From a virus (Duplodnaviria > Caudoviricetes): a DNA stretch of 64,000 nucleotides. The notes beneath the pieces are model-generated. The model was not told where the DNA came from. It saw nothing but the letters and a program-made list of their open reading frames with translations, and ran no database searches. Below, in pieces: positions 39,300 to 48,238 of this stretch. The first letter of the stretch is position 1; the number at the start of each line of letters is the position of its first letter. The stretch lies in the IMG/VR virus record IMGVR_UViG_3300021959_007005. One strand, written 5' to 3'. A program made the translations under genes and the position numbers.

Positions 39300-39403
39300 G
39301 TCGTATAGCAACTATGCTAGAGCAGAGGTGTAACACACAGGCTTAAAATAGTATCACAACCCAGAGACGGCGTTAAGGGAGGACATTTTGTTCTCCCTTT
39401 TCT
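39300..39403 (+). ncRNA. candidate small RNA (promoter to terminator, no ORF)
   Basis: TTGACT 39270-75 with weak -10; 10-bp terminator stem 39375-99 plus U-tract. Confidence 0.4.
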
Positions 39404-39510
39404 TATGTGCAGATACGCACAGTTGCACAAAACGCATATCGTCTTTGCGCATACAGCACTAGTAAACCATGGTTTTTAGTGTTATATTAAAATAAATAAA
39501 AGTACAACAA

Positions 39511-39609
39511 CAAGCGTCCTCAGCTTGCAAAAAATGAGGGGCAGGCGCAGACTGCCATATCAAGCGAATGACGCCAGGAAAAGACCTGGGGTATTGCTTT
39601 CCTCAAGCA
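39511..39609 (+). ncRNA. structured leader/sRNA: H-type pseudoknot plus three hairpins
   Basis: caagc/gcttg with loop gtcctca pairing to tgaggg; ggcag/ctgcc; ccagg/cctgg; tgctt-tcctc-aagca. Confidence 0.6.
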
Positions 39610-39637
39610 TCCACAAAACTGAATATGGAGATTCAAA

Positions 39638-39808
39638 ATGGTTAATATACTATACAATAACCTTGCGAGCTTGTTTGCGAGGAAAAATAAGCACTCTGAT
39701 GATATGCGACTATACGCAAAAACAGAATACAAAAGTGATTGGCAGTTTGCTTATCACTATATGATGACACACAACGGCGCTGGGCCACGAATGGGAGTAC
39801 ACAACTAA
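39638..39808 (+). CDS. 56 aa protein (not in ORF track)
   Basis: SD GGAG; MVNILYNNLASLFARKNKHSDDMRLYAKTEYKSDWQFAYHYMMTHNGAGPRMGVHN; TAATG coupling. Confidence 0.65.
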   Translation: MVNILYNNLASLFARKNKHSDDMRLYAKTEYKSDWQFAYHYMMTHNGAGPRMGVHN

Positions 39809-40068
39809 TGACACAAGCAATTTTAACAGCATCAACTATCTTAACAGACGCAGTACAAGGACTAATGGACCTTATACATGACATGAAAATTAAATCACAA
39901 AAACGTGCATTGGTACGTAAAACAAAAATTGAACTGTCAAGACTTTCAGACTATGAGTTAAAAGACTTGGGCATTGGTCGCAGTGATATTACTTCAATTG
40001 CTAATGGAACCTTTCACGATAACAGAAGTGTTGTAGAAGCAAACCGCAACTTGAGAGGTTGGGTATAA
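39808..40068 (+). CDS. DUF1127 (YjiS-like) protein
   Basis: RKTKIELSRLSDYELKDLGIGRSDI; start moved to 39808. Confidence 0.88.
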   Translation: MTQAILTASTILTDAVQGLMDLIHDMKIKSQKRALVRKTKIELSRLSDYELKDLGIGRSDITSIANGTFHDNRSVVEANRNLRGWV

Positions 40069-40262
40069 TGGAAGCAGTAGGAAACACACCAGTAGAAACA
40101 CCAACATTTATCAAAACACTCAACAAGTACGCCGTTGCATTTGCTATGGGCGTATGGGCATTTGGTGAATCAGCAGGTAGAGCCAGGGCTGCCGCTGAAC
40201 TACATCGTCAAGGCTACTACAAAGAAGCCAAAGCACTTATGCTTGGAGATAAAGATGTTTAA
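40068..40262 (+). CDS. small protein, DUF1127-like array member
   Basis: GRARAAAELHRQGYYKEAKAL; TAATG coupling. Confidence 0.65.
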   Translation: MEAVGNTPVETPTFIKTLNKYAVAFAMGVWAFGESAGRARAAAELHRQGYYKEAKALMLGDKDV

Positions 40263-40389
40263 GAGATTTTTGAAAGCAATGGAATATCGTTCATACTGCA
40301 TGGCAATTCGTGAATTGCGCAACAAAGGTATGTTTAAAGAAGCTAATAAGATTTCTGAGTACAAGCATACCATGTACCCAACACACTAA
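40255..40389 (+). CDS. 44 aa protein, paralogue of 40068 ORF
   Basis: AIRELRNKGMFKEANKI; SD GGAG. Confidence 0.6.
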   Translation: MFKRFLKAMEYRSYCMAIRELRNKGMFKEANKISEYKHTMYPTH

Positions 40390-40421
40390 GACTGCTACGT
40401 TTTAGCGCACTAAAAAATACA

Positions 40422-40458
40422 ATAGCAGGCTTGATTTTTGTTCAAAGCCTGCTATATA
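40422..40458 (+). promoter_or_regulatory. 11-bp inverted repeat overlapping a sigma70-like promoter
   Basis: atagcaggctt/aagcctgctat; TTGATT 40431-36, TGc-TATATA 40450-58. Confidence 0.45.
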
Positions 40459-40479
40459 CATTATATGGAGGCACTAATA

Positions 40480-40641
40480 ATGAGCGAACAAACTAACTAT
40501 TGTACTACAAAAGGATTAGGATTAGCTTTCTTGATTATTATTATCGGGATGGTAGGTATGCCTATTCTTGGATCGGCGATTGCTTATCCAGACAACTGTA
40601 AACAAAGTATACTAATTCCTTGCTTAGGATTAGGCGAATAA
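40480..40641 (+). CDS. small single-TM protein
   Basis: SD GGAGG; start moved to 40480. Confidence 0.6.
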   Translation: MSEQTNYCTTKGLGLAFLIIIIGMVGMPILGSAIAYPDNCKQSILIPCLGLGE

Positions 40642-40657
40642 ATTTTAAGGATAGAAA

Positions 40658-41077
40658 ATGAAAAAATTACTAGCTACTATAGCAGTACTAACTGCTTTCA
40701 CAACTACTGCCTTTGCCGCAGACACTACAGTCGAAATGTTAAACAAACGTGATGACGGCGCCAAAATGGTGTACTCAGAAGATATCACACGTATTGATGT
40801 AGGCGATACGATTACTTGGGTACCAACAGCAAAAGGTCACAATGTAGAATTCATTGCTGGTCCAGATGGCTGGGATGCACCACGTAAATCAAAACTCAAC
40901 AAAGAAGTTGCGATTACATTTGACACACCAGGCGTATATCTATATCAGTGTTCACCACACAAGTCAATGGGTATGATTGCTATTGTTGTCGTAGGTGACG
41001 GAGACAATGATGTATCCAAAGCCAAAGTAAAAGGCAAGTCAAAGAAAAAACTAAAGGCATTGTTGAAAGAGTTATAA
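40658..41077 (+). CDS. pseudoazurin (type 1 blue copper protein)
   Basis: signal peptide; VEMLNK, GHNVEF, YQCSPHKSMGM (H,C,H,M ligands). Confidence 0.93.
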   Translation: MKKLLATIAVLTAFTTTAFAADTTVEMLNKRDDGAKMVYSEDITRIDVGDTITWVPTAKGHNVEFIAGPDGWDAPRKSKLNKEVAITFDTPGVYLYQCSPHKSMGMIAIVVVGDGDNDVSKAKVKGKSKKKLKALLKEL

Positions 41078-44799: not shown

Positions 44800-44830
44800 T
44801 TGACATCGTTATATACTACTGTTATAAATA
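44800..44830 (+). promoter_or_regulatory. tmRNA promoter, overlapping sigma70 and late motifs
   Basis: TTGACA-17-TGt-TATAAA; the -10 is also TATAAATA (44823-30). Confidence 0.8.
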
Positions 44831-44835
44831 ATATT

Positions 44836-44897
44836 GTAAACGTTGAAGCAACGTGAACGCATACTGGACCGCGGGGCAGTACCGCGCATCTCCACCA
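44836..44897 (+). ncRNA. ssrA: two-piece tmRNA, acceptor piece
   Basis: T-arm cgcgg-GGCAGUA-ccgcg (alphaproteobacterial loop), acceptor strand CAUCUCC, discriminator A, encoded CCA (44895-97); 5' end approximate. Confidence 0.92.
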
Positions 44898-44911
44898 TAA
44901 GGACATTGAGA

Positions 44912-45100
44912 ATGGAAATTATCTGGCACATACTATTAACAGTTTGTTCTGGCACAACCTGCTTAGAACAAGATGTACAACAGTTTGAAACTAAAGCACA
45001 GTGTAAAACTATGCTTGTAGAATATACAGAAATGCCAGCGGACGGACATTGGGATACAGTTGAATATATCTGTAAACCTTTAGATTCAGTGTCTTTATGA
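44912..45100 (+). CDS. 62 aa Cys-containing protein inside the tmRNA intervening segment
   Basis: AAGGA SD; MEIIWHILLTVCSGTTCLEQ..C..YICKP; stop 1 nt before mature tmRNA 5' G. Confidence 0.7.
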   Translation: MEIIWHILLTVCSGTTCLEQDVQQFETKAQCKTMLVEYTEMPADGHWDTVEYICKPLDSVSL

Positions 45101-45101
45101 T

Positions 45102-45266
45102 GGGGATGAAATAGGATCGACAGGTGTGGTAGTGAAGTGGAGTTTACCGGATGACTGCGTTATTGGTCAACATTTCTAAATGCAAACGCAAATAGAGCGC
45201 CAGAAATGGCATTAGCAGCCTAAGGGTATGTGGGGGCGGGTACTGCCTAGCAACAGAAGTGCCACT
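45102..45266 (+). ncRNA. ssrA: two-piece tmRNA, coding piece; tag ANANRAPEMALAA (45182-45223)
   Basis: GGGGAUG pairs 7/7 with CAUCUCC including G3-U70; GAAAUAGGAUCGAC D-region; UAAAU-GCA resume codon; 3' end approximate. Confidence 0.92.
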
Positions 45267-45285
45267 CTAATGTAAAGGACATCTA

Positions 45286-47148: not shown

Positions 47149-47919
47149 ATGATGAATCGTGTATTAGCAATTTTAACAGCAGGCACAATGGTACTCAGTA
47201 CTAATGTATTTGCACAAGATGCTACAATCGGCGGAGAAGTTTCACTAGACTTTAGTGAACAGACTTCAGGCGACTGGGGCGGAAAAATGGGAGTCGACGT
47301 TGATGTTGACTCAGCATTAGGCGGCGTAGCACTGGACTTTAGTGCTACAGATGGCGGCAACCTAAAACTTGACAACTGGACAGTTGGAACGTCAGTAAGT
47401 GGCGTATCAATGGCATTTGGTGATGACAATAGTCTTATGCCAGGTGCAGAAGGCGAACAAACACTAGCAGCGCCAGCAATGACTGAATCACTACAATTAT
47501 CAGTAGGTGCAGCAAGTGTAGCAATTGGTTTTACTGACTGGACAAGCGATATCACAGATATCAGCAACGTTCAAGGTGCTTACACATTAGGCGATGTAGT
47601 AACAGCAAGTGTTGATATGAATCTCGATACAGATAATGTTGTACTAGGTGCGGAAGTTGCAGACCAAGATCTTGGTGTAGCATTAATCGGCGGCGCTGCA
47701 ACATATGACATGGATGCAGAAATGTTTGGCTTTGAAACAGTAGCAAAAACAGGTAGCATCGAATCTTACCTAAATGGTGATCAAGATGACCTATTACAGA
47801 ACATTGGTGCTGAGTATACATATACTATGTCTGAAGGTGTAGAATTTTCAGCAGGCACAAACTACAATTTGGATAGTGAAGATTTAACTCCAACAGTTGG
47901 ACTTAGCTTTAACTTCTAA
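47149..47919 (+). CDS. outer-membrane porin-like beta-barrel
   Basis: signal peptide (AFA-type), alternating strands, acidic, C-terminal VGLSFNF. Confidence 0.75.
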   Translation: MMNRVLAILTAGTMVLSTNVFAQDATIGGEVSLDFSEQTSGDWGGKMGVDVDVDSALGGVALDFSATDGGNLKLDNWTVGTSVSGVSMAFGDDNSLMPGAEGEQTLAAPAMTESLQLSVGAASVAIGFTDWTSDITDISNVQGAYTLGDVVTASVDMNLDTDNVVLGAEVADQDLGVALIGGAATYDMDAEMFGFETVAKTGSIESYLNGDQDDLLQNIGAEYTYTMSEGVEFSAGTNYNLDSEDLTPTVGLSFNF

Positions 47920-47941
47920 GTTAAAAACATAAAATAAATTA

Positions 47942-47963
47942 AGGCTCTTCGGAGCCTTTTTTT
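47942..47963 (+). terminator. intrinsic terminator
   Basis: aggctc-UUCG-gagcct plus T-run. Confidence 0.9.
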
Positions 47964-48042
47964 ACGGCTATCTCTTGACTTATACGGATAAGTATACTAT
48001 ATTAGATGTATAACAAATAACATAATGAGTTAGGATGATTAA

Positions 48043-48216
48043 ATGGCTGGATATGAACCATATATTGGATGTGCATTGGCATTATTAATATGTTACATGG
48101 GTTACCGAAAAGGAATTCGTGACGGCATTGAAGCTGCTATTGATGGGATGATAGCACAAAATGTATTAGCTATTGATAATAACGGTGAAATTACAGCTGG
48201 ATCTAAAATTAAATAG
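48043..48216 (+). CDS. 57 aa single-TM protein (not in ORF track)
   Basis: own TTGACT promoter, AGGA SD; MAGYEPYIGCALALLICYMGYRKGIRDG. Confidence 0.6.
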   Translation: MAGYEPYIGCALALLICYMGYRKGIRDGIEAAIDGMIAQNVLAIDNNGEITAGSKIK

Positions 48217-48238
48217 TAAATCAGAACTACTCGACTAC

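Follow-up and report, generated by a model that had tools for sequence, protein, structure and literature searches.

What is a 62-codon open reading frame (ORF) doing inside the spacer of a two-piece tmRNA gene, and how might a single transcript serve both? The question arises from a 64,000-nt stretch of viral DNA (Caudoviricetes; IMG/VR record IMGVR_UViG_3300021959_007005), hereafter the window, in which a preliminary description, made from the sequence alone, had noticed a circularly permuted tmRNA whose intervening segment (IVS, or spacer) holds an entire gene and is closed by a helix that hides the ribosome-binding site of that gene. Permuted tmRNAs are already known from marine phages, Methylophilales phage Melnitz among them (PMC9004378), and the maturation of two-piece tmRNAs by RNase P and 3' processing is the standard model (PMC3985003). 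The paper on Melnitz leaves its spacer undiscussed (PMC9004378), a 2025 tmRNA database paper lists, as contents of spacers of this kind, a tRNA-Ala gene and a repetitive element and nothing else (PMC11915505), and our literature searches on coding spacers of permuted tmRNAs found no published description.

The tmRNA gene occupies positions 44836-45268 of the plus strand, on which all the features below lie. The preliminary description had proposed ARAGORN and the alpha_tmRNA covariance model as checks, and both recover the gene: ARAGORN calls a permuted tmRNA with the tag ANANRAPEMALAA followed by a stop, and the Rfam models alpha_tmRNA (RF01849) and tmRNA_permuted (RF04321) match with 106.4 and 109.8 bits, against gathering thresholds of 50 and 47, respectively. 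The CCA-ended acceptor piece comes first (44836-44897), with a T-arm at 44870-44886 bearing the loop GGCAGUA, the acceptor 3' strand CAUCUCC at 44887-44893, the discriminator A at 44894 and the CCA itself at 44895-44897. The spacer of 204 nt (44898-45101) fills the interval between this CCA and G1, and the coding piece follows (45102-45268), opening with GGGGAUG, the G1 of which, at 45102, is the expected RNase P site. The acceptor stem has 7 bp and includes the G3-U70 pair of alanine identity, here G3 at 45104 with the U at 44891; the tag reading frame (45182-45223) has a GCA resume codon and ends in ALAA and a stop. Compensatory changes are seen in both the T-arm and the acceptor stem across 16 relatives aligned for RNAalifold. 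Upstream of the acceptor piece lies a promoter-like arrangement of TTGACA (44800-44805), a 17-nt gap and TATAAA (44823-44828); the same TTGACA-N17-TATAAA precedes the acceptor piece in Melnitz and in a further relative, L029. Our consensus promoter scan skipped this TATAAA because its rule accepts a -10 hexamer only if the sixth base is T. By all these marks we are dealing with a two-piece tmRNA gene of the alpha type, functional in appearance, in a marine T4-like phage. We infer the removal of the spacer from the mature RNA from what is known of tmRNA biology. A group I intron was considered as an alternative identity of the segment and rejected: no intron family exceeds its Rfam threshold in the window, and the segment occupies the interval from the CCA to G1 instead of interrupting the T-loop. 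A different kind of departure is seen at another locus (L051:621-652), where the T-loop of the acceptor piece is canonical and tRNA-like, of the GCGAUUC type, and not the GGCAGUA of the other phage tmRNAs considered here; this may reflect exchange with a tRNA gene.

The ORF in the spacer runs from its ATG to its TGA over positions 44912-45100. It begins after a gap of 14 nt from the CCA, is preceded at a distance of 8 nt by the Shine-Dalgarno (SD) motif AAGGA (44899-44903), and stops 1 nt ahead of G1. A scan of IMG/VR yielded 61 viral loci that encode relatives with 55-85% identity, and the homologue in Melnitz is 59% identical. The length of 62 codons is held in all copies but a few, which have N-terminal extensions, and 20 columns are invariant in homologues down to 55% identity, among them four cysteines and the motifs P.DG.W and CKP. 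Pairwise dN/dS ranges overall from 0.15 to 0.24, with 0.15 for stand-alone copies and 0.20 for copies inside an IVS; the latter, taken by themselves at a dS of about 0.85, retain the 62-codon frame intact. AlphaFold2 (AF2), supplied with the homologue alignment, predicts a beta-beta-alpha-beta fold with a pLDDT of 89.6, in which the tail (residues 57-62) is disordered. Because the ORF has these 61 homologues, this range of dN/dS, a constant length and a confidently predicted fold, comparative evidence shows it to be a genuine protein-coding gene under purifying selection. The central claim of the preliminary description, a permuted tmRNA that encloses an entire selected gene in its spacer, is hence upheld by ARAGORN, Rfam and dN/dS, the last of which it had itself suggested and which comes out at about 0.2; its coordinates for the tmRNA, the ORF and the closing helix were each re-read correctly in the sequence.

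The function of the protein is less readily approached. Searches of Pfam and PHROGs returned no family for it, and fold searches of the PDB and BFVD with its model returned nothing significant; the BFVD matches are numerous uncharacterised small phage proteins with E-values of 0.03 or worse, and the protein atlas places it with viral hypothetical clusters only. The top PDB match is 8g9s_A, which at E 0.26 and TM 0.66 is not significant. This chain of about 70 aa belongs to an entry on the inactivation of type I-C CRISPR-Cas3; the match is too weak for a function to be assigned, and we mention the resemblance of the predicted model as a possible lead towards a small inhibitor-like protein. The hydrophobic N-terminus had also raised the candidacy of a signal peptide or lipoprotein, which we rejected: the segment forms the first beta-strand in the confident model, and a basic n-region is absent.

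Is this gene a singular guest, or are the spacers of phage tmRNAs generally occupied? We surveyed spacers by anchoring on the coding piece alone, via exact 14-mers, so that the frequencies given here are rough; an earlier, first sample of spacers was skewed to AAGGA. The tmRNA pieces of the relatives were located with motif patterns of our own, ARAGORN having detected just 14 of 64 there. Viral spacers in the survey are 9-291 nt long. Among the 32 with lengths of 95-300 nt, 13 have an ORF that begins within the first 30 nt and takes up at least 85% of the length; the shuffle control averages 1.48 such spacers and never exceeds 6. In the matching cellular sample the spacers measure 3-83 nt, with a median of about 30, and none falls between 95 and 300 nt; that of Pelagibacter measures 12 nt. 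Divergent copies mark at least seven ORF families, unrelated to one another, as recurrent in spacers. These counts show phage tmRNA spacers to be, as far as sequence can tell, a general slot for unrelated small genes. SD-like motifs are present in 9 of 14 ORF-bearing spacers, compared with 15 of 66 (p = 0.004), and in many ORF-bearing spacers the SD falls just outside the core of the helix. The stops of spacer ORFs are found at a few places relative to G1: at -1, within a UGAU leader; at +13; from +30 onwards; or 7-15 nt ahead of G1. The stop at +13 is a UAG within the conserved GAAAUAGG of the 5' end of the mature tmRNA. One family, which we call E (GGDEFD...GERK..KR.YNKR), has both free-standing copies and copies in spacers, and inside spacers its tails are swapped for residues encoded by the closing helix and by the tmRNA. 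Fifteen other spacer ORFs were likewise compared with Pfam and PHROGs: none could be assigned, the matches being two weak ones to PHROGs of unknown function and a sub-threshold one to a holin.

Melnitz (MZ577097) offers an instance of the same slot with a different occupant. Its spacer, which together with the start of the coding piece makes up L001:3281-3461, is 142 nt long and bears an SD-led ORF of another family (MFKW...PKYL), also found in L277; this ORF extends beyond G1 into the mature tmRNA, and GenBank annotates the tmRNA alone there. Directly 3' of the Melnitz tmRNA (L001:3602-3650) lies a glutamine riboswitch (RF01739, 52.8 bits), which is given in the paper on that phage (PMC9004378); in the window RF01739 has no match above its Rfam threshold.

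The helix that closes the spacer, which we term the clamp, pairs the 5' strand 44898-44910 with the 3' strand 45085-45097. The former includes the SD, and the latter is at the same time codons 58-62 of the gene, a dual coding indicated by codon conservation and by the disordered tail of the protein. Between the 3' strand and G1 stands the UGAU leader (45098-45101), the UGA of which is the stop codon of the gene and which is complementary to A73-C-C-A76 but for one C.A mismatch. The clamp proposed in the preliminary description is borne out by folding, with 12-13 bp, and the minimum free energy (MFE) structure of the spacer closes its ends (z = -3.43; not one of 200 shuffled sequences reaches as good a fold). 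In the full precursor it has a predicted pair probability of 0.99; the duplex is worth -14.0 kcal/mol, and clamp and acceptor stem together -31.1 kcal/mol. When 16 homologous gene-bearing precursors were given to RNAalifold unguided, the result was one continuous stem, passing from the acceptor stem through the leader to the clamp, with the leader paired as A73-U(-1), C75-G(-3) and A76-U(-4) (alignment pairs 29-239, 31-237 and 32-236).

The wider sample of phage spacers agrees with this structure. Our own pair counts over 100 unique phage spacers ending in UGA-N show that, in 86-100% of the sequences, positions 2-10 counted from the CCA are paired with their mirror counterparts on the 5' side of UGAU. 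Mean pairing in this register is 0.93; it is 0.34-0.66 when the register is slid, and 0.72 (maximum 0.746) when the partners are shuffled. Several Watson-Crick types occur at each position, as at position 5, with GC in 39, CG in 26, UA in 18 and AU in 5, and the covariation that was to be looked for in the clamp is thereby found. TGAT ends 96 of the 128 unique phage IVS. The frequency of UGAU before G1 is explained by its being the complement, with one mismatch, of ACCA in the precursor stem; since UGAU is an element of the precursor structure, the gene would have taken its stop codon from that structure. Two functional roles proposed for the clamp also fit: the conserved, covarying helix runs on into the acceptor stem and would permit the tRNA-like domain to fold, and the SD is sequestered, its AAGGA lying in the 5' strand with a predicted unpaired probability of 0.00 in the full precursor.

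One part of the earlier picture has to be turned around. The clamp is real and it covaries, but it did not evolve for this gene, in that the same helix closes spacers without an ORF and spacers with unrelated ORFs. In L016, where the gene lies outside the tmRNA, the spacer is a bare 28-nt hairpin of the same clamp sequence, AAGGA included, and spacers of 29-37 nt that consist of the hairpin alone, with the same clamp helix, are found in L172, L031 and L146. By this comparison the clamp is shown to be a stem that is ancestral in the tmRNA precursors of this phage lineage and that extends the acceptor stem. The gene bears the imprint of its surroundings: codons 61-62 are TCT TTA in 14 of 14 unique in-IVS copies and variable in stand-alone copies, and unrelated spacer ORFs that share the UGAU stop have similar tails dictated by the clamp, namely VSL, MCL and VSF. 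From the alignments, then, the gene is seen to occupy the loop of the stem, with the AAGGA of the stem as its SD, the 3' strand as its last codons and UGAU as its stop.

The family is not confined to tmRNA. Next to tmRNA, the 62-codon gene is found immediately upstream of the whole tmRNA gene in Melnitz, L029 and L016, and immediately downstream in L031. Elsewhere its neighbours are tRNA genes: in 12 of 42 stand-alone loci the ATG follows the end of a tRNA by 13-20 nt (this tRNA is Thr-UGU, or in L056 Ala-UGC), and in 13 of 42 a tRNA-Leu starts between -1 and +2 from the stop. In eight loci (L033:1410-1772, L035, L036, L037, L040, L041, L024 and L055) the gene, with a TAG stop, is wedged between tRNA-Thr(UGU) and tRNA-Leu. 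Where the stop is TAG, its G is also G1 of tRNA-Leu, with 7 of 7 acceptor pairs formed in this register against 2-4 of 7 when shifted by one; RNase P would hence cut within the stop codon. In the window and in these relatives alike, the ORF has a tRNA-type 3' end as its immediate neighbour on one side and a predicted RNase P site on the other. The gene neighbourhoods show the usual home of the family to be a spacer bounded by a tRNA-type CCA end and a putative RNase P site, provided either by tRNA-Thr and tRNA-Leu or by tmRNA. The source contig of the window (107.6 kb; 107,580 bases) has a single copy of the gene, this tmRNA as its only tmRNA and, by ARAGORN, zero tRNA genes, so that the tmRNA spacer is the sole tRNA-type spacer open to a gene there.

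Movement between these homes can be read from the gene tree, which is built on 171 nt and unrooted and leaves the direction of the moves unproven. Copies inside an IVS are spread over two or more separate clades, in every one of which outside relatives are also present, and L016 is nested in an in-spacer clade (98/85) while retaining fossils of both clamp strands. The tree topology shows the gene to have moved, on this reading, at least twice between the tmRNA spacer and other tRNA-type spacers. RNA data add to this: the metatranscriptome run X5 contains the joints 44897>45098 and 44907>45088, that is, co-occurring relatives without the ORF and with the clamp strands joined, from which it follows that natural populations mix spacers with and without the gene.

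Six metatranscriptomes contain the tmRNA stretch. Contigs 100% identical to the window cover 44876-45228 (X16), 44883-45158 (X5) and 44870-45043 (the DNase-treated X18); those of X16 and X5 span both processing junctions, and every RNA contig that holds the spacer crosses at least one junction. RNA-run contigs upstream of about 44787, ahead of the promoter, were not found. These data are assembled contigs, devoid of transcript ends, strand or level. Over 14 kb the contig coverage ranges from about 2 to 268, and two DNase-treated runs yield only 5-10 contigs in this 14-kb region, one of them on the stretch from acceptor piece to spacer; coverage so uneven, together with the sparse contigs of the DNase-treated runs, fits transcripts and not DNA. 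RNA spanning both expected cleavage sites is thus present in nature. The highest contig depths, up to 268, lie elsewhere in the window, at 39400-40860 and 47150-48230, in four marine metatranscriptomes, and these two regions are also among the few sites detected in the DNase-treated runs.

How, then, could a gene be expressed from an RNA that buries its ribosome-binding site? Predictions that describe equilibrium and not kinetics leave the SD unpaired with a probability of 0.60-0.76 in nascent RNA that holds only the 5' part of the spacer, and of 0.00 once the 3' strand is present. We think it probable, with some reserve, that a selected gene has come to lie in the ancestral precursor stem of a tmRNA, and that the RNA is used as messenger first and as tmRNA afterwards. 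The gene would be transcribed from the tmRNA promoter within the precursor; ribosomes would load on the nascent RNA with the SD open and the 3' clamp strand still unmade; when translation stops, the clamp would close, shutting the ribosome-binding site and drawing both pieces of the tmRNA close to each other; maturation of the tmRNA by RNase P and 3' trimming would follow. For any single molecule messenger use would precede tmRNA use, and the two would be mutually exclusive. The preliminary description had put translation at a different stage, with the released, end-clamped spacer as a stand-alone mini-mRNA whose translation is tied to maturation, and the layout lends itself to this: ORF, SD and stop fit exactly between both expected cuts, the clamp would shield both ends of the excised RNA and leave a 4-nt 3' overhang, and spacer RNA is detectable in metatranscriptomes. 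We consider such a working mini-mRNA unlikely in general, given that after excision the predicted probability is 0.01 for an unpaired SD and 0.98 for a formed clamp, and that each RNA contig with the spacer extends over one junction or both. On these models the more likely course is translation on the nascent precursor, because the SD is closed in the completed and the excised forms alike, because several other families of spacer ORFs, ending at +13 or +30, need sequence past G1 and hence an uncut precursor, and because the predicted RNase P cut in the tRNA arrays falls within the gene's own stop codon, where again the uncut precursor is required.

The position of so many stops at -1, overlapping G1 or past G1, in independent cases and in an RNA that is tmRNA itself, could be taken to mean that processing decides the fate of the product: ribosomes on a spacer cut by RNase P would be subject to trans-translation, their product would receive the tag of the phage tmRNA, and only protein made from uncut precursor would survive. 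This we regard as improbable, for it is pure inference, the window has a complete UGA at -4 to -2 on which release factor 2 could still act, and tight packing in dense genomes could alone account for abutting stops. More improbable still is a mere passenger, a selfish or relic ORF that is transcribed without being translated. The spacer is indeed dispensable, in that relatives make do with 28-nt hairpin spacers, the SD is buried, and there is a precedent in the IVS of the 23S rRNA of Coxiella burnetii, whose ORF product S23p is apparently not made in vivo (PMC4990558); but a passenger would not be expected to show the dN/dS of 0.20 of the in-IVS copies at their dS of about 0.85, an unbroken frame of 62 codons, 20 invariant residues, or the enrichment of SD motifs in ORF-bearing spacers (9/14 versus 15/66). 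On a broader and rather doubtful reading, the tRNA and tmRNA precursors of marine T4-like phages would be dual-use RNAs with small genes punctuated by tRNA-type processing sites, translation would race against RNase P, and processing, since the stop is at, on or past its site, would pick between normal release and trans-translation by the very tmRNA in which the gene resides.

One close likeness is with the tRNA punctuation of mitochondrial transcripts, reportedly set out by Ojala, Montoya and Attardi in 1981. There, too, coding sequence is bounded by tRNA-type sites, and a stop may abut or overlap the first base of the next tRNA. The window differs in belonging to a bacterial virus, and its two 'tRNAs' are the halves of the tRNA-like domain of one tmRNA; we know of no polyadenylation in bacterial viruses that would complete stop codons. 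With the two-piece tmRNAs of alphaproteobacteria and Melnitz it shares the acceptor-IVS-coding order, the G3-U70 pair and a tag of the form ANxN...LAA, and it differs from the alphaproteobacterial ones in its 204-nt spacer with a selected gene, the sampled cellular spacers being 3-83 nt long and non-coding. The 23S IVS of Coxiella is likewise a stem-closed segment of a stable-RNA precursor with an ORF, dispensable and patchy in occurrence (PMC4990558); the spacer of the window differs in its host RNA, in the nuclease expected to act, and in having an ORF with an SD and under purifying selection. Group I introns with homing-endonuclease genes occur in the T-loop of tmRNA genes (PMC11915505) and are similarly removable interruptions of a tmRNA gene able to carry a protein gene, whereas the phage spacers are not self-splicing, lie between permuted ends and hold ORFs for diverse small proteins that are not endonucleases.

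The spacer of the two-piece tmRNA, so far regarded as disposable, is in marine phages a recurrent home of selected small genes, whose translation signals are built from the structure of the tmRNA precursor itself; members of the same family are also found between tRNA genes, where the stop codon falls on the RNase P site. This gives a bacterial counterpart to tRNA punctuation and a concrete, testable case of an RNA of a bacterial virus that would be messenger first and stable RNA second. Annotation pipelines mask such genes beneath tmRNA features, and the finding suggests that dozens of small phage proteins, expressed from strong early promoters, go unannotated in some of the most abundant virus-host systems of the ocean. 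In these phages, tRNA and tmRNA precursors with genes in their spacers appear to double as messenger RNAs.
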